From the IMG/VR virus record IMGVR_UViG_3300036773_000096, positions 32,001-96,000 of that record: DNA of 64,000 bases; one strand, given 5' to 3'. The notes beneath the pieces were generated by a model, which was not told the origin of the DNA, searched no databases, and saw only the letters and a program-made list of their open reading frames with translations. Each line of letters begins with the position of its first letter. The stretch's first letter is position 1. Shown here piece after piece: positions 16,047 to 54,459 of this stretch. The DNA comes from a virus. The position numbers were made by a program, and so were the translations under genes.

Positions 16047-17510
16047 TCAGAATCGCCGGGTCACGCCGACCTTGGTGACGGTGAGCGCGATCAACGCCCC
16101 CGTGGGGGACACCCGCACCGCGCACGTCGCCTGCACCATGTTCGCGCTGGCCACCTCACGGCTGGGGTCAGTGGTGATCGAGAAGCCGGGGTCGCGTTCG
16201 ATCGGGGTACCGCCCAGCGGGTCGGCGTCGATCCACGGATAGAGCCCGCCAGCGTCAGCCATTGGCAGCACGAGCCCCGTCAGGGCGCCCTCCACGCGGG
16301 CCAGCAGATGCCCGCGTGCGTCGATGGTGGAGAACACCATCGGATCCAGGGCCTGCTGGGAGGCGACGACGATGCGGTTGATGACGTCGATACCTGTGAG
16401 CAGCCGCCAGTTGGCGATGTCGGAAGACAGCGACCGCCAGCCGTAGAGCCGGACCCCACCGGACACCGGCAGGATCGGGGAGACCTTCGCGTCCTCTAAG
16501 GCGTTAGCGGTGGCGGAGTCGAAGATTTGATCGGGGGCCACCACCACGATCGACCGAGCGCGGTCACCCGCTGGGGCCTGCCACGGGCCGACGTCGCGGT
16601 GCGCCCGTGCCCGCACGGCCGCGATGTAGCCGTCGCACGGAATGGAGGACAGGCCGCCGAAGGCGTCGCGGGTCTGCACCCACGGGCCGAACAGTCCCGC
16701 GTACTCACTGTCATAGGACGCGGCCAGGGTGGCGAGCTGAGTGGAGGTCGACCCGCGCGCGGAGACCAGGATCGCGAGACGGTTGTTGGCTTTGGCGTGC
16801 GCGATCAGCCCGGTGTGGGTGGCGTCGCCACCACCGGGGATGGCGACGCACCCGTCGCCGTACTGGGGACCGAAGCGGGCCAGGGCGGCCACCAGGGAAG
16901 TGGCGTTGACCGAGCTGCGGTCATCGGTGCCCGCGCCCAGGGCGACCGGGCCGACGACGGCCGGGTTGTTGTTCGGTGCCACCGTGGCCGACGCGAGGTC
17001 GGTGACCGAGACCCACGAGCTGCCGGCGGTTTTGGTGACCGCGTCCTGGGGGGAGGACAGGTTGGCGTAACGCTCCACTTCGATCCCGAGATAAAGGACC
17101 GAGAGGATGAACGTGTTGGGCACCGTGCCCGCGAGGATCTGCACCGTGACGTCTGAGGACCACGAGCCGGGGCCCTTGGCGGTCACCTGCAACGTCGACA
17201 GTGGTGTTCCGGCCCGGTCGACCAGCGGCGTCCCCAGGGAGCCCTGGGTGGCGGCCGGGCCGACGACGCGGGCGACGTAGGCTTCCCCGCCGCCTTCAGC
17301 GAAGAACATCGCGATGTCGTCATAAAGGTTGCCGTAGGACGGTCGGGTGCCGAAGGTGGCCTCGAACTGTGCCAGCGACGTCACGCGTGCCACATCGGTG
17401 GCCGACCCGCGCGCGGCCAGCCCGACTGCGAAGTAGGACGCGCTCGGTACGGGGATGGGGAACAGTGAGCCGGCCGCAGCGGTGCGGGTGACGGTGACAC
17501 CTACAGCCAT
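16047..17510 (-). CDS. Tail sheath protein
   Basis: AKGPGSWS, LGAGTDD, FGPWV, WQAPAG and LYGWRSL sheath motifs. Confidence 0.95.
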   Translation of the reverse strand: MAVGVTVTRTAAAGSLFPIPVPSASYFAVGLAARGSATDVARVTSLAQFEATFGTRPSYGNLYDDIAMFFAEGGGEAYVARVVGPAATQGSLGTPLVDRAGTPLSTLQVTAKGPGSWSSDVTVQILAGTVPNTFILSVLYLGIEVERYANLSSPQDAVTKTAGSSWVSVTDLASATVAPNNNPAVVGPVALGAGTDDRSSVNATSLVAALARFGPQYGDGCVAIPGGGDATHTGLIAHAKANNRLAILVSARGSTSTQLATLAASYDSEYAGLFGPWVQTRDAFGGLSSIPCDGYIAAVRARAHRDVGPWQAPAGDRARSIVVVAPDQIFDSATANALEDAKVSPILPVSGGVRLYGWRSLSSDIANWRLLTGIDVINRIVVASQQALDPMVFSTIDARGHLLARVEGALTGLVLPMADAGGLYPWIDADPLGGTPIERDPGFSITTDPSREVASANMVQATCAVRVSPTGALIALTVTKVGVTRRF

Positions 17511-25881: not shown

Positions 25882-27240
25882 TCAGGGAGTGATCGCGGCG
25901 GCCAGGTTGACCTTGACCATGGCAGCGGGGCGGTAGACGGCCAAACCCAGCCGCTCTTCGGCCAGGACCACGATGGCGTTACGAATGAAGAAGTCCGCGT
26001 GCTGGTCAGCGGTGCGGATGTTGGACTGCATGCGGTCAAACACCTGCGCGCCCAACCCGAAAGCGCCGATCAGAGCGGTGCCCTCAGGACACGCCGGAGT
26101 GGCGACAACAGGCATCTGCCACAACCGCTTCTCGGCACCGGAAGTGACCGACCCCGCGACCAAATAGCGGCCCTGGGTGTCCTTGGTCAATTCCATGCGC
26201 TCCCAGTCGTATGGGTGCACAACTACGCCGGTCGGGTCATACTGCGCCAACATGACGCGCGTGGCGCCCCGGCGAATAGCATCGACGTAGGTCTCGTTAG
26301 TCGGTGCGTGATAGCCGCCGGAAGGGAACAATTGGATACCCGGCGTGTTGAAAATGCCCAGCAGGTTCTGGCCCGTGCCGTCACCTAGAAGCAGCTGCTG
26401 GTCTTCGACCAACCGCAGGCCATAAAGCAGCCGGGTGTCGATGATTCCGCGCAACTGCGGCTCGTCATCAAGAACGTTGCGCGACGCGGGCACCCAGTGG
26501 GCGAGAGTCCGGATCGGCGTGGTCTTGATGTTGAAGTGGATCTGCGACTTCGGCTTCAGGCCGAAGTTGTCGTTGGGCGGAGAGACCCCGTCACGCTCGG
26601 GAATCATCGCCGCCGCGTTGTCGCCCGCGTCGACGAACCCCAGCTCCTCAATGAACTCGATCATCACCGAGTTGGTGTTCATCTGCGGGAACAGGTCACG
26701 CACCCGCCAGGTGAGCATCGGAGCTGACACCATCGGCGCCCGCTGCACCGTGCCGAAACCAGGGTGGACAACAGTGCCGATGCTGCCGGAATGAACATCC
26801 TTGTACTGCACGCCGTTGGGGGAGGTAATCTCCTCGCCCTCGATGGCGAACGCCTTGTCCATGAAACCGGAGTCACGGTGGCCCTTGAAAGCCTCCGACT
26901 CGACGAAACGCTGCCCCAGTGACTTATACTCGGGCATCGCCGTCACGCCGATACCGGCCGGGGATCCACCCATCGCCACGGGCGTGCCGGCGGGGGCGTC
27001 GAGCCACTCGTCCAGGAGGCCCTTGCGCTCCAGGGCGGTGACGATGCCGTGAGTCTCCTCAGCCTTGGCCAGCAGGGCCTTGAACTCGGTGAGGGCTTCG
27101 GGCTTGACGTGCATGTTGCCTTCGCCGTCGAGCCAACCTGACTTGGTGATCTCGTCCATTTGTGCGTTGATGGACTTCACTTCGACCTTGCCACGATCAA
27201 TGAGGTCTTTGTCGTGGCGGTCGAGAGTAGGTGCGGTCAC
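25882..27240 (-). CDS. Major capsid protein, HK97 fold
   Basis: IRTLAHW..SRNVLDDEPQL, ED.QLLLGDG.G.NL.GI, VVHPYDW, FIRNAIVVLAEERLGLAV motifs. Confidence 0.97.
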   Translation of the reverse strand: MTAPTLDRHDKDLIDRGKVEVKSINAQMDEITKSGWLDGEGNMHVKPEALTEFKALLAKAEETHGIVTALERKGLLDEWLDAPAGTPVAMGGSPAGIGVTAMPEYKSLGQRFVESEAFKGHRDSGFMDKAFAIEGEEITSPNGVQYKDVHSGSIGTVVHPGFGTVQRAPMVSAPMLTWRVRDLFPQMNTNSVMIEFIEELGFVDAGDNAAAMIPERDGVSPPNDNFGLKPKSQIHFNIKTTPIRTLAHWVPASRNVLDDEPQLRGIIDTRLLYGLRLVEDQQLLLGDGTGQNLLGIFNTPGIQLFPSGGYHAPTNETYVDAIRRGATRVMLAQYDPTGVVVHPYDWERMELTKDTQGRYLVAGSVTSGAEKRLWQMPVVATPACPEGTALIGAFGLGAQVFDRMQSNIRTADQHADFFIRNAIVVLAEERLGLAVYRPAAMVKVNLAAAITP

Positions 27241-42724: not shown

Positions 42725-44065
42725 CTAAGCCGCAGCGGCCGGCGTGGCCACGATCTGACCCGCCGACACGGCCGCCACCGCCAGCACCACGCCCGCCGCG
42801 AGCACCAACGCCCCACTCGAAACACCCACCAGTGTCCCGGTCGGGACGGTCACCGCCAGCACCGCCGCGCCCGCGACCACGGGTGGGGCCAGCGCGAGCG
42901 CCAGCGCGCCCGGCCAGGACAACTGCTGCCCCGGTGCCACCGCCACCTCGCCACCGAGCACCCGGTAACCCACCACGTCAGCCGGAACCGACACCTCGGG
43001 TATCGCCATCGGCTCACCCAGCTCCGGCGCACTGACCACTAGCGGGCCATCCGTTCGGGGAATCCCCGCCCGCAGCAACCGGGTGGCCGCCTTCGGTGTG
43101 CCGCGCTGCGCCAAACCCACCGCGCGGGCCTTATCGGGGGCCGGTCTCGAGAAAAGCAGCGAACAGCGGCACCCGAACACTTCCCGGCCACCGGCCGGCA
43201 GCACCATCGGGTCAGCGGGGAACCGCAGGCCGAACTCGCCCACCTGAAACTTCTCCCCCACGGGCCGGATCTGCCCGTCGGCCTCGACGTGGGTATGGCG
43301 GACCCGGTCATCGCGCCGCGACAGCCACTGAGTGTGGGTAACGCCCAGGGCTTTCGCCGCCCCCAGCGCGGCGTCGCCGGCCAGCGCCGTGGCCAGAGTG
43401 CGCCCGTTGATCAGCAGCCATCGGCCGCCGCGCTTGGTGGCCTCCATGACCCGGTCGATCGCCTCGGACAGGTTCCCCGCCGTGGAGTCGGCGGCCAGGA
43501 TCTCCCGGCGGATGTCAACAGCGTGGCGTTCGTTGACTTCCAGCATCCGCCCCACTACCGAGTCGACCGCGCTGGAGATCGCCGACCAGTCCAGTGCCGC
43601 GAGCCCCGTGTTCGGGCGCCCCAGGGACTTCGCGACAGCTGCGGAAGCGTCCGCCACGATCCGCAACCCCACCGGGCGTACGGCGTCGGCGACCTCAGTG
43701 ACCACCCGCTCGGGTAACACGTAGGACGCGTCGAGGGCTTTGACTTCGGTTCTATGTCCGTAAGAGGCCACTTCCCCTCGCCCTGATACCGATTTCACCC
43801 CATCGGACCAGAAGCGGGTGCCCTTGCGAGCCTTCGGGCCGCGCATCCGGGCCTCGACAACCGCCTCCAGCCGGTCGTTGTAGCCGCCGATCGCGGCATC
43901 CATCAACGCCACCGCCCGGTCGATGCGCGCCGCACCGTGATCGGCCAGCGCGGTGCGGATCGGGCCGGGCTCCGGATCGGGGAGAGCTTCGGAGATCATC
44001 GCGGCCTGGGCGGCCAACGCCGGAAGGGCGTCAGCGGCGAGCGGGTCGCCCCCCGCTCTGCTCAT
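42725..44065 (-). CDS. MuF-like minor head protein with a degenerate C-terminal domain
   Basis: WLSRRDDRVRHTH, LRFPADP and FGCRC are MuF motifs. Confidence 0.87.
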   Translation of the reverse strand: MSRAGGDPLAADALPALAAQAAMISEALPDPEPGPIRTALADHGAARIDRAVALMDAAIGGYNDRLEAVVEARMRGPKARKGTRFWSDGVKSVSGRGEVASYGHRTEVKALDASYVLPERVVTEVADAVRPVGLRIVADASAAVAKSLGRPNTGLAALDWSAISSAVDSVVGRMLEVNERHAVDIRREILAADSTAGNLSEAIDRVMEATKRGGRWLLINGRTLATALAGDAALGAAKALGVTHTQWLSRRDDRVRHTHVEADGQIRPVGEKFQVGEFGLRFPADPMVLPAGGREVFGCRCSLLFSRPAPDKARAVGLAQRGTPKAATRLLRAGIPRTDGPLVVSAPELGEPMAIPEVSVPADVVGYRVLGGEVAVAPGQQLSWPGALALALAPPVVAGAAVLAVTVPTGTLVGVSSGALVLAAGVVLAVAAVSAGQIVATPAAAA

Positions 44066-45710
44066 CCTCCAGGCTCTTGACCTGAACTGGCGCGGCGTCG
44101 ACCGCGCTACCCGGTGCGGTGCGATCAGCTTGGCCGATGGCCCGCTGGTTCGGTGGCCCCGCCGTCACCGCATCAGCCGGCGCGCCACTGTCCTGTCCAG
44201 GGCCTTCCAGGTCCGCGCTCGGGTCGACACCGAAGCCCGCCGGCAGCGTATTGGGCACCCCGGCACCGCCCGCGCCCCCAGCCGGTGCCATGCCGAGCTG
44301 CCCATTGCCGATGGGGGCGTTGCCGGCGGCGTGAGCGTCCCCGTCGTGGGCGGGCTGACCGTCGTCGATGGCCAGGCGCGCGGACGGGATCCACAGCACG
44401 CGGGTACCGGGGACGTTTATCGGATCGCGGTCGCACACCTCGCGGTACTCGTCGATGCTGATCGCGCCCCGGTCGAGGTCGGCCGCCGCCCGGTCCTCAT
44501 CGGCGCGCTGATGCCGGCCCAGCACCCACACATCGGAAACGTCATGGGAGAGGTAGGTCTCATCGTCATAGCCGCCCGGTGACAGGACATCCAATTGCGC
44601 GTCCAATAGCCGGAACAATGGCAACATGCAATGCTCCCACGCTTTAGCGTAATCAGCATCAGCATTATCGAATGTTTGCCCCGACGCATCGGAGACAACG
44701 GACTCGGGCAGTCCGAACGCCACGCAGATCTCGCGTTTGGTCCGGTCCATGGTGTCGGCCCACTGAGTGTCCCGGGGTGTCCCGGACGTGTCCGTCCACG
44801 CCATGTCGTCGGCTTCGATGACGGTAGTGCGGGCATTGGAGACGTTCGGCCCCCCGTTGAACCGGGCGGCCAGCACGTCCTCATAGTTCGGGTCCAGGGG
44901 GCCCTTCACGGCCAGGATGCCGCCCGGCCGGCCGTCTTCGAGCATGAACCTGCGGTTGTACAGGCGCGCATATCGGTCGAGGTCTGCGGACAGGCCGGCG
45001 GCTTCCATGGGCGACATGCCGCGCTCGAACATCGTGGGGTGCGGGGAGCGCAGCCACACGATGCCGCTGGGCTGGTCCTCTGGAGAAGCGTTGGGATCGA
45101 ACGGTGGCCGCCAATCCCACCGGGGGGAACCATTGGCTACCGCCGTGGTCACCCGGAACGACTCGATGGGAGTGACGACACCGATCTCATTCGGATCCTG
45201 CGGGTTCTTCTTCCGCCGCCCCGGCACGGGCAGAACCGCATCAGGATCCAGCAGGTAAACCGAGTGGATACCGCCGCCGCGTGTGCGGACCGCCTCGACG
45301 AACACCCCGCGTGAGGACAGCATGAACTGGGCGGTGAGACGGTGACGCCAAACCTGGGCGATCTCCCACTCATTGGCGCGGCGGTTCAGCCGGCGCAGGA
45401 TCCGCTTCTGCTCCCGGTCCTGCTGGCCGGGGTCGATGATCTCCCCGTCGTTGGGGTTGTCGCGGCGCAGCACGATCTGTCTGGCGCGCTCATTGGCGGC
45501 GATGAACTCCACACACCGGAAGACATACGGGTTCCAGGAGTAGCCCTCACGCACCGCGCGGTCGGTGTCCCAGTCAACGGAGTAGGGCTGGCCGGGAACG
45601 ATGTAGCCGCGTGGGCCGGTGACCACTCGGGAGTCCAGGCCGCCACCTTGACTGCCTGCTCCAGCGAAACGCGCGCGCAGGGCCGGCAGGAAGCGACGGG
45701 CCACAACCAC
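44031..45710 (-). CDS. Portal protein
   Basis: YVFRCVEFIAAN, SPMEAA, RFM.EDGRPGGIL, ICVAFGLPESV and ISIDEYRE motifs. Confidence 0.92.
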   Translation of the reverse strand: MVVARRFLPALRARFAGAGSQGGGLDSRVVTGPRGYIVPGQPYSVDWDTDRAVREGYSWNPYVFRCVEFIAANERARQIVLRRDNPNDGEIIDPGQQDREQKRILRRLNRRANEWEIAQVWRHRLTAQFMLSSRGVFVEAVRTRGGGIHSVYLLDPDAVLPVPGRRKKNPQDPNEIGVVTPIESFRVTTAVANGSPRWDWRPPFDPNASPEDQPSGIVWLRSPHPTMFERGMSPMEAAGLSADLDRYARLYNRRFMLEDGRPGGILAVKGPLDPNYEDVLAARFNGGPNVSNARTTVIEADDMAWTDTSGTPRDTQWADTMDRTKREICVAFGLPESVVSDASGQTFDNADADYAKAWEHCMLPLFRLLDAQLDVLSPGGYDDETYLSHDVSDVWVLGRHQRADEDRAAADLDRGAISIDEYREVCDRDPINVPGTRVLWIPSARLAIDDGQPAHDGDAHAAGNAPIGNGQLGMAPAGGAGGAGVPNTLPAGFGVDPSADLEGPGQDSGAPADAVTAGPPNQRAIGQADRTAPGSAVDAAPVQVKSLEDEQSGGRPARR

Positions 45711-48067: not shown

Positions 48068-48087
48068 GCTGTCCAGCTGTCCGGACA
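48068..48087 (+). promoter_or_regulatory. Putative GntR operator, copy 1
   Basis: GCTGTCCAGCTGTCCGGACA, 19/20 identical to 49463-49482; TACTGT -10 box follows. Confidence 0.65.
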
Positions 48088-48539: not shown

Positions 48540-48616
48540 TGGCCGCTAGCTCAACGGTAGAGCGGCTCGCACGGCGCCGTGCGGGGCGGCCCTGGGTTCG
48601 ACTCCCAGGCGGCCAA
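48540..48616 (+). ncRNA. tRNA-like RNA lacking a canonical anticodon loop
   Basis: Acceptor TGGCCGC/GCGGCCA; D arm GCTC-AACGGTA-GAGC; T arm CTGGG-TTCGACT-CCCAG; a 23-nt GC hairpin replaces the anticodon arm; no encoded CCA. Confidence 0.75.
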
Positions 48617-48617
48617 C

Positions 48618-49436
48618 TCAGTGGATCGTGGTCTCGAAACTGAGCACGTAGCTCGATGCCTCGATCACCGCGATCGAACACTCCACCGGCCGGTCCCCCG
48701 CGTAGAACACGCGCATGATCTCCCCCACGGGCCCCACCACATCCATACCCAGAACCTGACGCTCACGCGGCGTCGGGGGGCGAACCCTGACCTCCTCTAA
48801 GACGCGGGACACCACGAGCCCCACGGAGTACAGCTCCGCCAGGGTTCCCCCCGGCCAGGGCTGCCGATCCGGGTCAGCGACCGGGGTACCGGCCACTAGG
48901 TCTAAGGGAATCACTGACGTTTGCAGCTGCACCGTCACCCCGCGCACCTGCTTAATCAGCTCCCGCGCGAGCACCATCGCACCGGGCACCAGCTCCAGGC
49001 GCGCCGCGAAATCCTCACCGGCCGGCTCTTCGACGTAGTGGGCGAGCACGTTGTGCTCCGGCCACGCCACACCGTGATCCGTCGTGAACGCCGACGACAG
49101 CGGATGGCAGCCATCGTGGGCGCGGATCGCGTCCAGGGCCTCCTGGTATCGCTGCGTCGACATCCGGCGGACTTGCGGTGGGGTAGCCACTCGGGTGGGG
49201 CACCCCGAGCGCTTCACGATCCGGCCCTCAGCTACCAGGTCATCCATGGCGGTGCGCACCGTGGCGCGGGCAACGCCGGCCATTTCGGCGATCGCATGCT
49301 CACCGGGCAGGGTCTCACCTGCGGCAAGGGTGCCGTCGATGATCGCTCGACGTATCGCGTCGGCGACCTGACGGTGCAGCGGCGTGCCCACCTCGAAGCG
49401 GTTGACGCTCCGAAAGTGGACCCCAGTTAGTGGCAC
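48618..49436 (-). CDS. GntR/HutC-family regulator with UTRA domain (KorSA/TraR-like)
   Basis: QVADAIRRAI..GETLPGE..VARATVR HTH; WPGGTLAELYSVG..EEVRVRPPT.RE..L UTRA; TATGAT-N7-GTG start at 49436. Confidence 0.88.
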   Translation of the reverse strand: MPLTGVHFRSVNRFEVGTPLHRQVADAIRRAIIDGTLAAGETLPGEHAIAEMAGVARATVRTAMDDLVAEGRIVKRSGCPTRVATPPQVRRMSTQRYQEALDAIRAHDGCHPLSSAFTTDHGVAWPEHNVLAHYVEEPAGEDFAARLELVPGAMVLARELIKQVRGVTVQLQTSVIPLDLVAGTPVADPDRQPWPGGTLAELYSVGLVVSRVLEEVRVRPPTPRERQVLGMDVVGPVGEIMRVFYAGDRPVECSIAVIEASSYVLSFETTIH

Positions 49437-49462
49437 GCCACGAATCATAGCCGACCTGTCAG

Positions 49463-49482
49463 GCTGTCCAGCTGTCCGTACA
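49463..49482 (+). promoter_or_regulatory. Putative GntR operator, copy 2
   Basis: GCTGTCCAGCTGTCCGTACA between divergent -10 boxes (TATGAT on minus at 49444-49449, TACTGT on plus at 49490-49495). Confidence 0.68.
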
Positions 49483-49572
49483 CCCGGTGTACTGTGGTGA
49501 GACCACAAGACGTCGCCGGCCGGACGGGTGGAACGAACCCCGCCGGCCGGCGAAACCAACGAAGGGGGCGAC

Positions 49573-50409
49573 ATGGACGCAGACGCCAGGGCCCCCCTGT
49601 TCAACCGCTGGACGTGGGGCGCGGTCGGGCTCACCATCGCCCCGCTGATCCTCTGGGGCGCCGCCAGCGTGTTCCTGCTCGCCGTAGCGTGCGGCATTCC
49701 CGCCTACCTCGCGTGGATCCCGTCAGCGTCGACCACGGGCGTCATGCTCGTGTCGTCGATCTTCGCGATGACCGAAAGCCTCTCCGATGAGGTCCGCACC
49801 TACGCCCGCCGGATGGCCTACTCCGCGATCGGCCTGGACACCGTCGTGTCCGGCCTGCACCTCGCGCTGCCAGTGCACCTCAATCCCGCCGTGGGGTGGC
49901 TGGTGTTGATCGGCATGCTGCCCCCCCTGACTGGCGGCATCACCGGGCACATGATCGCCGCCGCTGTCCGTGAGCACCGCGCCACCGGCAAGGCGGCCGT
50001 CGCCGCCCAGCTCGCCGCCGAGCAAGCCCACCGCGACAGTGAGGCCGCCATCGCACGGGCGGAACGTCTCGCGACCATCGCCCGCGCCGAAGCCGACGCC
50101 AAACGCATCGCCGATGAGGCCGATGCCCGCAAGCGCGCCGCTGCGGCGGCCGTCGTCAACACGGCGCTGACCGGGCCGACGCTAGTCCGCGCCCCCGCGC
50201 CGAAGCCCCCGGCCAGGCGCACCGCGAAGCCGACCTTGCGTGATGCGGCGGTCGCCGAGCTGGTCCGTCGTCACCGCGCCGGCCAGAACATCGCGGCCAC
50301 GGTGGCCGCCGAGCTGGACATCGCGATCGGCGCCGGCAAGGGCTACTGCAAGAAGTTCCTGCCCGAAATCGTCGACCACGTGCTCACCGCTGAAAGGAGG
50401 ACCGCCTGA
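49573..50409 (+). CDS. DUF2637 / Spd-like membrane protein
   Basis: About 4 TM segments, IPAYLAWIP, then an Ala-rich coiled coil and a C-terminal helical domain. Confidence 0.65.
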   Translation: MDADARAPLFNRWTWGAVGLTIAPLILWGAASVFLLAVACGIPAYLAWIPSASTTGVMLVSSIFAMTESLSDEVRTYARRMAYSAIGLDTVVSGLHLALPVHLNPAVGWLVLIGMLPPLTGGITGHMIAAAVREHRATGKAAVAAQLAAEQAHRDSEAAIARAERLATIARAEADAKRIADEADARKRAAAAAVVNTALTGPTLVRAPAPKPPARRTAKPTLRDAAVAELVRRHRAGQNIAATVAAELDIAIGAGKGYCKKFLPEIVDHVLTAERRTA

Positions 50410-51524
50410 TGGCCACGAAGACGACGGCCCGGCCGAAGCCGAAGGTCACGCCGCTGCCGGGGCAGAAGCGCATCACACCTAAGCCCACCAACGCCCGCGA
50501 GCACACCGCTGAACGGATCAGCAAGTGGATGGGCAAGCGCGGGTGGACTAAGGCCGTGCGGGGTGTCTACCGCTACAGCGTGAAGAAGTCTGAGGCCCGC
50601 CGGGAGAACCGGCTCGCGCTGAAAGAGATGCGCGAGAGCGCGGTGCCGACGTGGCGCCAGCGCGTGGAGCACCGCCGCTCCCAGCGCACCGGGGGCGCGG
50701 GGCGGGGGCGGGCTAAGAACTACTGCGCTGGGTGCGGCAAGGCCATGTCGGCCGAAGAGTTGCGCACGCACGACTGCGGGCCGAAGCCCAAAGCGGCCAA
50801 GGCTACAGCGGCAACGGCGGCGACCCAGCCGGCGCCCGCAGCCCCGCCGGCACCAGTTGCGGCACCGCAAGCGCCGCAAGCTCCACCCGCTGCGCCCTCA
50901 GACACTCCGGCTACACCGGCACCGACTCGACGCCAACGGCTGAAGGACCGCCTGTCCGGCAAGGCGGAGATGCCCACGCAGCCAATCGTGGCGCCGGCCG
51001 GCGCGACGGTCACCCCGATCGCAGGATCCAAGCCCGCACCACCCCCGGCGACCGCAGGGGCGAACAACAACGAAGGGAGCCCCCAAATGGCATGGGGCAG
51101 CAAGTCAGGCAACGGCAACGGTGCAAGCGCAGCTGGCGGCGGAAGCTCTGGGGCGGCCAGTTCCGCCACGGTCGGGGCGATGCTCACGCCGTGGACGGCG
51201 TGGGCACAGAACGTACCCAAGACCCACATTGAGATGGTCGCCGAGCTGGAGGCGATGAACCAGCTGATGGTGGCCATCGGGCAGACCATCCGGGAGCGCC
51301 AGGCCCGCATGATCAACATGGGCTCTGGCCCCAACGGGGAACAGATCGGCTTTCACCCCACCTGCGTCCAGCAGCTCAACGGGGCCGCCGACCAGATCTC
51401 CGCTGCCGGCGCCTACTTCACGGCCACCCACGTGGCGATCACCGCGCACTACCAGGCGCTGATCCAGCACTACCAGGGCGGCACTCCCGATCCCGGCCGC
51501 CAGTACCTGTCCAACGCCAGCTAA
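50409..51524 (+). CDS. Transfer-accessory (TraA-like position) protein
   Basis: Basic N-terminus, C-x2-C..H.C motif, Pro/Ala linker, helical C-terminus; directly upstream of TraB. Confidence 0.55.
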   Translation: MATKTTARPKPKVTPLPGQKRITPKPTNAREHTAERISKWMGKRGWTKAVRGVYRYSVKKSEARRENRLALKEMRESAVPTWRQRVEHRRSQRTGGAGRGRAKNYCAGCGKAMSAEELRTHDCGPKPKAAKATAATAATQPAPAAPPAPVAAPQAPQAPPAAPSDTPATPAPTRRQRLKDRLSGKAEMPTQPIVAPAGATVTPIAGSKPAPPPATAGANNNEGSPQMAWGSKSGNGNGASAAGGGSSGAASSATVGAMLTPWTAWAQNVPKTHIEMVAELEAMNQLMVAIGQTIRERQARMINMGSGPNGEQIGFHPTCVQQLNGAADQISAAGAYFTATHVAITAHYQALIQHYQGGTPDPGRQYLSNAS

Positions 51525-51547
51525 TCAGACGAGAGGAGCACACCATC

Positions 51548-53725
51548 ATGGGTCGACGCGTCGGGCACGCTCCGGCGATCGCTCACGACCAGACCTGGGG
51601 CGAGTGGTACAACACGCATTCCCGCCTGTTGAACCCTTTCGCCGCCGGGGCGGCCGTGGGTCTCGCCGGGGTGCTCGATGCGTTGCTCGTGCCCTTCTGG
51701 TGGCAGACCGTCGCGGGGGTCAGTGTCGCCGGGCTCGGGGTTTTCTTGTGGACTATTGGCCTGCTCGATGCGATGCAGCGCCGCGTCTACCGTTTCATCC
51801 TCGTGCTGGGCATGTTGTGGATGTTCGCCTGTCACACGCCGTGGGCGACGGAGTACAAGCTGGATTTCGGTATCGCCTGGTTTTGTGCGGTGATGCTGTC
51901 CGGGTGTGCCTACTGGACTGACCAGCGTGAGACGAAGCGTCGTGAGGTTGACGCTGAGGTCAAGGCGTGGGCCCAGTTCAAGGCTAAGAAGCTCGGAATC
52001 GAACTGTCCCGCATTACCCCTAAGAAGAAGACCAAGAACGGCTCTACGCGTCGCCTGTGGTGGGATGGGGACGATTACACGGTGTCTCAGATCAAGGGAC
52101 TCGCTCCCCGCATCGAGGCATCGTTGGGTATTCCCCTGGGGCAGCTGCGGGTCATGGAAGTCAAGAACGACAGCGACATGACCCGGTCGGACTGTGTCGA
52201 CCTCGTCGAGAACACCGACAACGCTGCCCGGCGCATTCCCGTGGCGTTCACCTCGCCCACCATGACGTCGATTTGTGACGCCATGGACGTCGGGCCTTAC
52301 GACGATGGCGAAATGTGCCAGATCTTCTGGTACAAGCAGGGATTCGGTGGCACGCACACTCTCGCCGCTGGGGCGACCCGGTCAGGTAAGAGCGGTTTGT
52401 ACCACCTGATGTTGGCGGAGACGGCGAACTGTGACGATGTGGTGCGGTTCGGTATCGACGCCAAGGGCGGAATGGCGCTGCGGCCCTGGGCGCCGATGTT
52501 CCACTGGTTGGTGTGTGGTCGCGACGAGGCTGCCATGGAGGAGGCCGCCGCACTACTGGAGCGCATCAACGCGATCATGATTTACCGGGAGAACTACGCG
52601 GCCAGCAAGGGCTGGGACGTCTGGCGGGTCAGTAAGAAGCACCCGTTGATCATTCTGTATGTCGATGAGGCAGCAGAAGTGTTCAACATGCAGATGGAGA
52701 ACTTCCACGCCCTCCAGCTAGTGGAAAAGCTCGGCCGGATGGGTGCCGGTGTCGGTGTTCTGTTGTGCGCCGCAACCCAGTACCCGACTCTGGACGCGAT
52801 CGGCTCCAGCCAGCTCCAGGCGAACATTCTGCGGAGGTTCTGTTTCCGGGTGCAGCAGACCGCACACCAGGCGATCGCATTGGGTCGCCACAACGGGGCC
52901 GTGGATGCCACGTTCCCCGACAAGCCCGGCGGCGACAAGGGCGCCGGGTGGTGCTTCCTGTCCGAGATGGGCTACATGCGCGACATGGCGTTGCGGGTTC
53001 GCAACGTCGACCGTGACGGCATCTACGACATCGTGTGCAAGTACTGGACGCGGTGCTGCCCCCTGGATGCCGGCAGCGCGAACGTCGACTGCCGCAACGA
53101 CGAGTACCGGGCCCGGAAGATCTGGCGCCCGGAGGACGTCAAGCCGAGCAGCGGCGTGTGGGCCGACGAGGACGACGAGGACACCCCGGATCCGGCGCTG
53201 GGACCTGACGCTATCGACGACGAGTTGGCGGAGATGCTCAGGGATTCCGGCGGGGACTCGAAGGGGAGCCCGGCGGGGACTCCGGCCGGGGAATCAGCGG
53301 GGAACGAGCCGGGGACTCCGGCCGGGGAATCAGCGGGGAACGACACTAAGGAGCAGGTCATGGACACAGCGACGACGGAGGCCAGCATCCCGATCATGGA
53401 GATGCTGATGCCACAGGGCAAGGCCGAAGCGGAAGATCTGGCGGCGGCGCAGAAGCGGTACGCAGAGGAGAATGAGGACTGGTCAACGGAGAAGGCCACT
53501 GCCGAGTTCTGGCGGATCTTCCAGGTGGCCGGCCGCGACGGGGTCCGGGTGAAGACCCTGCGGGAGAAGTGCCACCGGTCGGTGTCGTGGACTCAGAACA
53601 AGCGACGGGAGGCGCAGGAGGCCCAGGCGATCGTGCCGATCGCGGCGGGCTCGGAGTACTACCGGCTGGTGTCCCCGTCGATGGTGCCCCAGGCATACCG
53701 CCTGGACTCCGGTAACGCAGAGTGA
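51548..53725 (+). CDS. traB: TraB-like FtsK/SpoIIIE DNA translocase
   Basis: N-terminal TM segments; Walker A AGATRSGKS; Walker B ILYVDE; ATQYP; C-terminal winged-helix-like segment. Confidence 0.88.
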   Translation: MGRRVGHAPAIAHDQTWGEWYNTHSRLLNPFAAGAAVGLAGVLDALLVPFWWQTVAGVSVAGLGVFLWTIGLLDAMQRRVYRFILVLGMLWMFACHTPWATEYKLDFGIAWFCAVMLSGCAYWTDQRETKRREVDAEVKAWAQFKAKKLGIELSRITPKKKTKNGSTRRLWWDGDDYTVSQIKGLAPRIEASLGIPLGQLRVMEVKNDSDMTRSDCVDLVENTDNAARRIPVAFTSPTMTSICDAMDVGPYDDGEMCQIFWYKQGFGGTHTLAAGATRSGKSGLYHLMLAETANCDDVVRFGIDAKGGMALRPWAPMFHWLVCGRDEAAMEEAAALLERINAIMIYRENYAASKGWDVWRVSKKHPLIILYVDEAAEVFNMQMENFHALQLVEKLGRMGAGVGVLLCAATQYPTLDAIGSSQLQANILRRFCFRVQQTAHQAIALGRHNGAVDATFPDKPGGDKGAGWCFLSEMGYMRDMALRVRNVDRDGIYDIVCKYWTRCCPLDAGSANVDCRNDEYRARKIWRPEDVKPSSGVWADEDDEDTPDPALGPDAIDDELAEMLRDSGGDSKGSPAGTPAGESAGNEPGTPAGESAGNDTKEQVMDTATTEASIPIMEMLMPQGKAEAEDLAAAQKRYAEENEDWSTEKATAEFWRIFQVAGRDGVRVKTLREKCHRSVSWTQNKRREAQEAQAIVPIAAGSEYYRLVSPSMVPQAYRLDSGNAE

Positions 53726-53732
53726 CCAATGG

Positions 53733-53880
53733 GCTGGACGGTGCTGGACTCCAGAACCATCCAACACCGTCCAGCCGGGCCGCCAGCGAGCCCTCGACCT
53801 TAGGGGTACCTCGCGGCGAGGCCAGCACCGTCCAGAACTAGCCAGCACTGTCCAACGCAGTCCAACACCATCCAACGACC
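53733..53880. repeat. 10-bp-period direct repeats with an inverted copy (clt-like)
   Basis: Six tandem units at 53821-53880 (gccagcaccg, tccagaacta, gccagcactg, tccaacgcag, tccaacacca, tccaacgacc); three at 53750-53779; inverted ctggacggtgctgg at 53734-53747. Confidence 0.8.
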
Positions 53881-53896
53881 AAGGCGGCGACTACAC

Positions 53897-54241
53897 ATGG
53901 TGACCATCGCTTACGCGGCGGCACTGGCCCAGCCCCCCGGCCCGGAACCAGCCCCCAGCGGCATGTCCCCCGCCGCGCTGGGCACCCTGCTCGTCGTCGG
54001 GGCCCTGCTGTGGTGGTTCATCAAGATTCAGCGTGACCCACTGCGCAAGTGCGGCCGATGCCCCGCACCCAAACCGGACGGCAGCTATCACCGTTGCCGG
54101 CACTGCGGTGGCAGCCCGGAGCGGCTGAAGACAGCGGCGTGGTGGTTCCTGGCACTGGGCATCCCGGTGCCCCGTGCGCGGCGCTACACCGATCGCCGGG
54201 CCCGCATGGCGGTGCCGAAGGACTACACGCGCGACGATTGA
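53897..54241 (+). CDS. Small TM + CxxC/CxxC protein of the type following TraB in AICEs
   Basis: One TM segment, then PLRKCGRC..RCRHCGG..RL. Confidence 0.7.
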   Translation: MVTIAYAAALAQPPGPEPAPSGMSPAALGTLLVVGALLWWFIKIQRDPLRKCGRCPAPKPDGSYHRCRHCGGSPERLKTAAWWFLALGIPVPRARRYTDRRARMAVPKDYTRDD

Positions 54242-54274
54242 TTCCCCTTCGATGTCCCGGTGTTCCGGCACGCA

Positions 54275-54309
54275 GAGAGACCCCCAGCCGCGTCTGCTGG
54301 GGGTCTCTC
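54275..54309. terminator. Bidirectional terminator hairpin
   Basis: Perfect 14-bp stem GAGAGACCCCCAGC / GCTGGGGGTCTCTC between convergent units. Confidence 0.8.
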
Positions 54310-54459
54310 GTGTGAGGGGGTTTAGTCCCCTCGGTTCATGTCGGCCTCCCCTAGTTGTCCCCTTCTCGGTTCCCCGTCAGTGTCGACCCTGGATCGCGCC
54401 CTACTCGACGGTCTCGGTTCCGCAGTGCTCGTGCTCGTAGGTGTCTGGATGCCGCATGG

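Follow-up and report, generated by a model that had tools for sequence, protein, structure and literature searches.

A conjugation-type gene module was analysed in a 64,000-nucleotide stretch of viral DNA (the window), which corresponds to bases 32001-96000 of the 120,179-bp IMG/VR virus record IMGVR_UViG_3300036773_000096. The module spans window positions 48618-54314 and comprises a plus-strand operon of three genes, a divergent GntR/UTRA regulator gene, and a repeat block directly behind the gene for a TraB-like DNA pump. From the sequence comparisons given below, we put it at slightly better than even that this is a co-opted kor-spd-traB-clt double-stranded DNA (dsDNA) transfer module that has settled stably into a lineage of large tailed actinophages. 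As far as the sequences indicate, the novelty lies in a distinct TraB clade found in large contractile-tailed phages as part of a complete module, clt-like arrays specific to each lineage included; in the lack of plasmid or lysogeny genes from such phages in the searches made; and in the presence of the module in a second phage backbone. The presence of a TraB-type gene on a phage replicon is already known, with pZL12 as the experimental precedent. No description of phage TraB modules of the present kind was found in the literature searched, most subscription journals lying outside the scope of that search.

A TraB-like DNA pump followed by a clt-like repeat block

The central gene of the module (51548-53725, plus strand) encodes a 725-residue TraB-like dsDNA translocase of the FtsK/SpoIIIE type, for which the best NCBIfam match was plasmid_TraB (NF041214; 62 bits, E 4e-17, residues 26-493 against profile positions 8-466 of 639). 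Because this score is far under the equivalog cut-off of the family, the protein is placed by sequence as a distant TraB-like member of the FtsK/SpoIIIE superfamily and not as an equivalog of plasmid TraB. It is laid out as membrane helices (residues 17-149), a motor (~260-500), a disordered linker (539-622) and a C-terminal winged-helix region (647-707), with an intact Walker A motif (GATRSGKS) at residue 275 and an intact Walker B motif (IILYVDE) at residue 368. The Pfam FtsK/SpoIIIE motor family matched with 20.6 bits by itself and with 25 bits when neighbouring matches in the frame were included. A profile built from 22 family members and compared with the PDB recovered the FtsK motor (E 1e-14), as well as the pCW3 coupling protein TcpA and EccC. 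A Foldseek search with an AlphaFold2 model (mean pLDDT 63) likewise ranked FtsK first (6t8b, E 7e-9), followed by TcpA and EccC. Hydropathy peaks at residues 30-48 and 55-73 lie within the predicted N-terminal helices, consistent with membrane association. The C-terminal helix-helix-helix-strand-strand unit was modelled with a pLDDT of 71-89 and gave weak MarR-type matches in Foldseek; it is predicted to be a winged helix and occupies the position of the DNA-reading domain in TraB and FtsK. Plasmid dsDNA is pumped by TraB, which recognises clt via its C terminus (PMC4447253). A perfect 36-nt tandem duplication (53274-53343) was also observed within traB, where it doubles a GTPAGESAGN(E/D) stretch of the disordered linker that joins motor and winged helix.

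A block of repeats at 53732-53880 begins seven bases past the traB stop codon and holds a 10-bp unit (approximately CCARCACYRT, core GTCCA) ~11 times, in direct and inverted orientation, in ~150 bp. The copies form two clusters that flank an imperfect inverted repeat with a conserved loop, ACCTTAGGGRTA, and 5 of the 13 matches to CCARCACYRT in the whole 120-kb genome fall within the block. A block of the same layout directly follows the traB stop codon in the related loci L006-L018, and in every phage relative it starts within 10 bp of the stop. L006, the closest relative (95% TraB identity), has the same repeat unit as the window; the unit is CCAGAAC in L007, CGCCAG in L008, CTCCGGA in L010, GTCCGG in L013 and L014, CCGTCCAC in L016, and CGTCCA in L017 and L018. 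Relatives in chromosomal integrative and conjugative elements of actinomycetes (AICEs) carry CGTCCGC four to six times at the matching place after traB, and in a true Streptomyces plasmid, examined as a control, CCTGACACCC repeats straddle the traB stop codon. Published clt loci are composed of direct repeats and an imperfect inverted repeat beside tra (PMC3583192). Since the repeats sit at the traB 3' end and are specific to each lineage, the block has both the anatomy of clt and the evolutionary behaviour expected of it, and it is therefore described as clt-like, a predicted cis-acting transfer locus.

A conserved central hairpin in the repeat block was considered and is not claimed, as covariation was weak. 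Between the repeat clusters of L013, L014, L016, L017 and L018, ~60-110 nt past the traB stop codon, a conserved core of the form CTGACCTGTAA...CCCCCAGCCCCC was found, in place of which the group of the window has the loop given above. Such a core may be read by something besides the winged helix, a promoter or a host-factor site being possible.

A membrane partner and a divergent Kor-like regulator

Upstream of traB, 49573-50409 (plus strand) encodes a 278-residue integral membrane protein with a hydrophobic helix at residues 22-40, a coiled-coil, alanine-rich middle and a conserved C-terminal domain. A direct match to Pfam, including PF10935 (DUF2637) even at E 1, was not obtained, and PHROG and NCBIfam searches were also empty. 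However, positional orthologues do match PF10935 (70 bits in L016, 50 bits in L017 and 42 bits in the AICE-like chromosomal L060), and a profile of the membrane proteins of the window's group aligned with the DUF2637-positive orthologues at an hhalign probability of 98.9% (E 1e-17). As the positional orthologues score above the PF10935 cut-off and the two profiles match, the label DUF2637-like is right, and the protein, a probable divergent member of that family, is a candidate Spd-like partner of TraB. Its Atlas scores to DUF2637/SpdB clusters were below 0.9 (SpdB 0.84) and are taken as a lead only; a single-sequence comparison with a plasmid DUF2637 protein was uninformative.

The start of the next gene (50409-51524, plus strand) overlaps the stop codon of the membrane-protein gene. 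Its 371-residue accessory product has a CxxC...HxC zinc-finger-like motif and a low-complexity proline/alanine linker, followed by a conserved C-terminal domain. The gene keeps its position in L006-L010, and the orthologues yield weak C2H2 hints. Homology to a plasmid 'RRQRL motif-containing zinc-binding protein' was rejected: the letters RRQRL are present, and no similarity was found. Beyond the repeat block, 53897-54241 (plus strand) encodes a zinc-ribbon-like protein of 114 residues with one transmembrane helix and two CxxC pairs, which is conserved in L006, L008 and L010 (40-91% identity) and absent from deeper relatives.

The gene divergent from the operon (48618-49448, minus strand) encodes a GntR/HutC-type regulator of 276 residues, counted from an ATG at 49448 within a frame that is open to 49697. 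This ATG is probably the true start, because the domain begins at residue 108, the ATG is in frame, and the orthologues are 250-313 residues long. The GntR helix-turn-helix (55.9 bits, E 3e-15) and UTRA (53.7 bits, E 3e-14) domains both scored above their Pfam cut-offs, and together with the orientation away from transfer genes they match the KorSA, TraR and KorA type. The regulator is 29-45% identical to GntR genes that many chromosomal AICE-like loci carry a few kb upstream (4-5 kb from traB); some of these loci also have a DUF2637 gene directly before traB.

The 124-bp control region between the divergent genes (49449-49572) contains two palindromes, read from the sequence: GTACACCCGGTGTAC (49478-49492) and TGTGGT-GAG-ACCACA (49493-49507). 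Palindromes of the GT-N-AC type are typical of the GntR family. TraR of pSVH1 binds upstream of spdB3 (PMC4447253). On these two grounds, both palindromes are considered putative operators of the GntR protein. Separately, a 20-nt motif, GCTGTCCAGCTGTCCG(G/T)ACA, occurs in two divergent promoter regions, one copy (48068-48087, ending in the perfect palindrome TGTCCGGACA) beside a sigma-factor gene and the other (49463-49482) between the GntR gene and the tra operon. Its presence in both promoter regions suggests that the sigma-factor gene and the tra operon are controlled together, with the GntR protein as a possible regulator.

Taken gene by gene, the module looks intact and agrees with the original prediction made from this DNA, which had listed a GntR regulator divergent from the operon, a DUF2637-like membrane protein, an accessory gene, a TraB with intact Walker A and B motifs, a repeat block after TraB and a gene for a transmembrane CxxC protein.

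The module is resident in a contractile-tailed phage lineage

The record carries a 127-bp direct terminal repeat, was rated 100% complete by CheckV, and showed no host flanks in its 120,179 bp; the element is a complete phage genome and not a chromosomal prophage. Terminase, portal, major capsid, sheath, tube and tape measure genes are all present, as in a contractile-tailed phage. Those in the window include the sheath (16047-17510), the HK97-type capsid (25882-27240) and the portal (44031-45710), along with genes for the tube, a chaperone, the tape measure, LysM and lysozyme/NlpC tail proteins, a neck protein, MuF, a DUF932 protein and a 3,563-residue polyvalent protein. A T4-type large terminase and several helicase/nuclease genes lie elsewhere in the record. 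The GC content is 64-72%, and composition is unbroken at the module, which has the same GC content as its surroundings.

The family of TraB-like proteins comprises 35 clusters, of which all are metagenomic but one, a Streptomyces isolate protein that was the most distant of the members used; members lie on contigs of up to 90-158 kb. Relatives are encoded by fourteen IMG/VR loci and one contig of a metagenome-assembled genome (MAG), and gene neighbourhoods were read from IMG/VR and GTDB loci. The order portal/MuF, (sigma), GntR, DUF2637-like, accessory and TraB is kept in L006-L011, L013, L014, L016 and L023, across which identity to the window falls from 97% to 47% for the portal and from 95% to 25% for TraB. 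The two identities are correlated (Spearman 0.98 over 8 loci, the points not being independent). Two of the related genomes, G003 and G004, share the sheath (76% and 51%) and capsid (83% and 52%) with the window phage. A second backbone was found in G005 (L019/L017, IMG/VR 3300025898_000004, complete, 94 kb), whose portal and terminase are its own and unlike those of the window phage, and which lacks a similar sheath or capsid; here too, a GntR, DUF2637, accessory and TraB set adjoins packaging genes. In a FastTree phylogeny of 52 sequences, for which every third chromosomal sequence was kept, the phage and metagenome TraBs lie on one side of a branch with 99% support, with the chromosomal proteins, two classical plasmid TraBs and gp10 of Streptomyces phage Gilgamesh on the other side, the root not being known and two phage rows being long-branched. 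Together, these observations point to a single old acquisition that has since been kept and has co-diverged with the portal.

One metagenomic TraB homologue (P0023, 1158 residues) contains an insertion of ~440 residues inside the Walker A loop that was recognised as a LAGLIDADG intein, with homing-endonuclease domains PF05204 and PF14528 and an end of ...HN before SGLY. Inteins in Walker A loops are typical of ATPase genes that must work.

Either a chimeric assembly or the recent insertion of an AICE or plasmid into a phage would explain why the plus-strand genes of the module are surrounded by genes on the minus strand and bordered on one side by a tRNA-like element. The same junctions, however, recur in one MAG and in contigs assembled from nine or more different metagenome samples; int, xis and rep were not found, the GC content equals that of the surroundings, and the tRNA slot is variable and not an att site. 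With the co-divergence of TraB and portal and the grouping of phage TraBs, the recurring junctions exclude both a chimeric join and the recent arrival of an AICE as passenger, an explanation that we regard as refuted for practical purposes and to which we assign a negligible probability.

The tRNA-shaped element in question (48540-48617, plus strand) ends one base before the GntR stop codon. Its predicted fold is a cloverleaf with acceptor, D and T arms, in which a long hairpin replaces the anticodon arm; ARAGORN reported it as tRNA-??? with no valid anticodon, and Rfam gave no match at E<=0.1. The same element is present in L006 (6736-6813), two ordinary tRNA-Gln genes (CTG, TTG) occupy the slot in L007 (6484-6632; a 62% TraB relative), and more distant relatives have nothing there. 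Given the tRNA-Gln genes in L007, the element may be a remodelled tRNA gene. A role as att site or module boundary was rejected on account of the variable slot. At the other end, convergent genes are separated by a GC-rich hairpin (54269-54314; -43 kcal/mol, z -4.7) that was more stable than any of 200 shuffles and is likely a bidirectional terminator. It was not called by a consensus terminator scan because it lacks a T run.

These results bear on how the original prediction had framed the module. The apparently intact virion gene set that it saw around the module is present: the window itself encodes sheath, tube, tape measure, capsid, portal and MuF, and the terminase gene lies elsewhere in the record. 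The tRNA-like element and terminator said to bound the module both exist, but they are local features and not the ends of a mobile element. Of the findings that it named as fatal, neither of the two that concern the sequence was made: the junctions are shared by many independent assemblies instead of marking a chimeric join, and there is no sign in the record of host flanks or of an independent AICE with int/xis/rep inserted into a prophage.

A role in superinfection exclusion or defence, in which the membrane ATPase would block or expel incoming DNA, accords with the PHROGs category of the nearest phage families ('moron, auxiliary metabolic gene and host takeover'). It sits poorly with a cis repeat array on the phage's own genome and with a module kept over deep divergence beside core genes, and we consider it highly improbable.

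Searches for plasmid maintenance and integration genes were negative

Six-frame Pfam searches of the 120-kb record found no tyrosine integrase (PF00589), resolvase-type recombinase (PF00239), Rep_trans (PF02486), ParA (PF01656) or ParB (PF02195); other replicon types were not searched. Integrase and ParA were likewise not found in four relatives that are at least 92% complete. The module is therefore unlike an AICE, in which Int/Xis, Rep and Tra are combined in ~10-60 kb between att sites, and is flanked by phage genes instead. Phage-plasmids are defined by plasmid replication and partition functions, and of these ParA, ParB and Rep_trans, the genes searched for, were not detected. With no ParA, ParB, Rep_trans or integrase found, a plasmid state like that of pZL12 is not evidenced. 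The original prediction had proposed that the contig be checked for plasmid character: the absence of host flanks fits with it, and the rep and par genes were not found by these searches. Its view that the element spreads both as virions and by conjugation, thereby escaping receptor-based resistance, is pure inference.

A true plasmid-phage would persist as a plasmid, mate between mycelia via TraB like pZL12, and also form virions. The repeat-bounded record without host flanks is compatible with such a lifestyle, for which pZL12 and pCQ4, with tra beside phage genes, are precedents (PMC3583192), and distant kin of the backbone (portal 33-36% identical) have been deposited as 125-145 kb Streptomyces and Thermobispora 'plasmids' and as phage Gilgamesh. 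Against it stand the lack of ParA, ParB, Rep_trans and tyrosine or serine recombinase matches in the genome and of integrase and ParA in the four near-complete relatives. Moreover, ParAB and an integrase are present in pZL12, which has a siphovirus-type backbone unlike the present one and whose tra gene was not matched. Terminal repeats also arise from headful-packaged, circularly permuted lytic genomes, and the terminase here is T4-type. A plasmid-phage is unlikely in our estimation.

A proposed role in the spread of phage DNA within the mycelium

In the co-opted transfer module that we propose, the GntR/UTRA protein would bind the palindromes between the divergent genes and keep the operon off, like KorSA and TraR. 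Once the operon is switched on, TraB hexamers anchored in the membrane would come together with the DUF2637 and zinc-finger accessory proteins at a septum or hyphal contact. The TraB C-terminal winged helix would read the lineage-specific 10-bp repeats just downstream of traB, and the FtsK-type motor would drive dsDNA of the phage genome into the compartment or cell next door. The sequences show the homology, the domain architecture, the order of the genes, repeat arrays that turn over between lineages, and conservation alongside the phage backbone; that TraB binds and moves DNA, which DNA it moves and what the phage gains from it are all inferred from sequence. Spread of phage DNA within the mycelium is favoured, with plasmid-like mating as the second choice, because maintenance and integration genes were not found and the trait is lineage-wide. 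Spd proteins mediate intramycelial spread, and virion-independent mycelial spread has been put forward by Thoma et al. for SpdB2 homologues in actinophages (PMC4447253).

Several points weigh against this proposal. The identity of the pump to plasmid TraB is just 22-25%, its NF041214 score compares with an equivalog cut-off of 800 bits, and the AlphaFold2 model is poor in the motor (pLDDT <50 at residues 380-468). The accessory and small proteins have no family match in Pfam, PHROG or NCBIfam. FtsK-like genes are common in actinophages without an established role (PMC13587820, PMC11536984), and the present protein might have a different function. TraB would also have to cope with a genome of 120 kb that is replicating or concatemeric. 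A mycelial host is presumed from the taxa of the relatives and from a BldN-like sigma factor, the absence of int, par and rep is based on six-frame Pfam searches alone, and no cultured member of the phage lineage was found in searches of phage and plasmid collections.

Intracellular functions for the pump would include drawing in the remainder of the genome once first-step entry has occurred, resolving or positioning DNA as it replicates, or acting on host DNA. This possibility draws on the wide occurrence of FtsK-like genes in actinophages, where they are loosely tied to replication (PMC11536984), on Gilgamesh gp10, which has no adjacent repeat array, and on the position of the module next to packaging genes. 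However, the membrane anchor, the Kor-like repressor, the DUF2637 partner and cis repeats that turn over with the winged helix are hallmarks of a transfer system, and a dedicated terminase is present. An intracellular role is accordingly quite unlikely.

Alternatively, the pump and its address repeats might load phage DNA over sporulation septa into prespores and so establish a carrier state. The same logic of a septum-located FtsK-type pump with sequence-directed loading would apply, a BldN/SigD-like developmental sigma factor is encoded 800 bp away, and persistence without int or par genes would be accounted for. The module nevertheless resembles the transfer and spread regions of plasmids, with GntR and DUF2637 genes, and not chromosome segregation loci, and we know of no actinophage precedent; spore loading as the main function is very unlikely in our estimation.

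Returning to the transfer module, a broader and more tentative idea, to which we give appreciably less than an even chance, is that an apparently non-temperate clade of large actinophages uses domesticated TraB, Spd and clt as a viral movement system over cross-walls or into spores without an extracellular virion, each lineage having a private 10-bp address code fitted to the lineage's winged helix. If true, this would be a bacterial counterpart of the movement of plant viruses through plasmodesmata, phages of multicellular bacteria would bypass the compartment barrier and possibly receptor-based resistance, and the modules would provide natural TraB/clt specificity pairs for studying DNA reading by FtsK-type pumps. 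The full plasmid-style context of repressor, membrane partner and co-varying cis repeats in any case turns a vague FtsK-like annotation into a specific, testable mechanism.

Comparison with known transfer systems

The nearest cellular relatives of the phage TraB are 26-34% identical and are encoded in chromosomes of filamentous actinomycetes, including Actinoplanes, Dactylosporangium, Actinoallomurus, Streptantibioticus, Actinospica, Catenulispora, Cryptosporangium and others. One such locus (L029) has an FtsK-like gene, a small open reading frame and a tyrosine integrase gene followed by host genes, which is the anatomy of an AICE. In a bona fide 14-kb Streptomyces plasmid, a GntR gene is divergent from genes that include DUF2637, a zinc-binding protein, traA and traB, an order that the phage module matches. 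At the DNA level, the module gave no match in searches of phage and plasmid collections.

With the plasmids pSVH1, pIJ101 and SCP2 and the pSAM2-type AICEs, the phage module shares an FtsK-like ATPase that is anchored in the membrane and carries a winged helix at its C terminus (predicted here), a divergent Kor/TraR-like GntR gene, a DUF2637-like gene upstream of traB, translational coupling, and an array of direct and inverted repeats at the traB 3' end (PMC4447253, PMC3583192). It differs from them in its low identity (22-34%) and in the lack of rep, int, xis, Pif or a recognisable SpdB2/TraA. Its carrier is a 120-kb phage, and its repeats, with their period of 10 bp, lie on either side of a conserved core.

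Annotations of FtsK-like genes are routine for Streptomyces phages (PMC13587820, PMC11536984). Among these, Gilgamesh (129 kb) resembles the window phage in its portal (33%) and in the FtsK-like gp10 (PHROG 1358; 27% over the motor). Its gp10 gene, however, lies 21 kb from the portal and has neither GntR/DUF2637 neighbours nor a repeat array, and a tyrosine integrase is present. Eight Streptomyces and Thermobispora 'plasmids' of 125-145 kb in PLSDB (NZ_CP122459.1, NZ_CP070374.1, CP108533.1, NZ_CP108441.1, CP109288.1, NZ_CP107821.1, NZ_CP107934.1 and NZ_CP039125.1) also encode portals that are 33-36% identical to the one in the window, and several encode an FtsK-like protein. They resemble Gilgamesh; judging by their genes, these plasmid entries are probably phage genomes or else phage-plasmids.

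The closest parallel in concept is found in pZL12, pCQ3 and pCQ4, which likewise combine virion genes and a TraB-type transfer gene on one replicon. Transfer of pZL12 is reported to require tra and two adjacent genes (PMC3583192). In pCQ4 (L106, NC_019307.1 24516-32463), annotated traA/traB genes were observed ~3.5 kb upstream of a terminase family gene, and by its gene content pCQ4 is a further TraB-bearing plasmid-phage of the pZL12 type. The original prediction had cited plasmid-phages with tra functions as precedent, and pZL12 and pCQ4 (PMC3583192) bear this out, so the concept is not new. A direct relationship to pZL12 was rejected, as tblastn with the TraB-like protein gave no match and the backbone differs. 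In contrast to the window phage, the three replicons are of siphovirus type, measure 85-90 kb, and have ParAB and an integrase on an unrelated backbone, and TraB of the pZL12 type is the classical plasmid form, which groups apart from the phage family in the FastTree phylogeny. If the proposed transfer function is true, the line between phage and conjugative element would be blurred in a second independent lineage besides that of pZL12.

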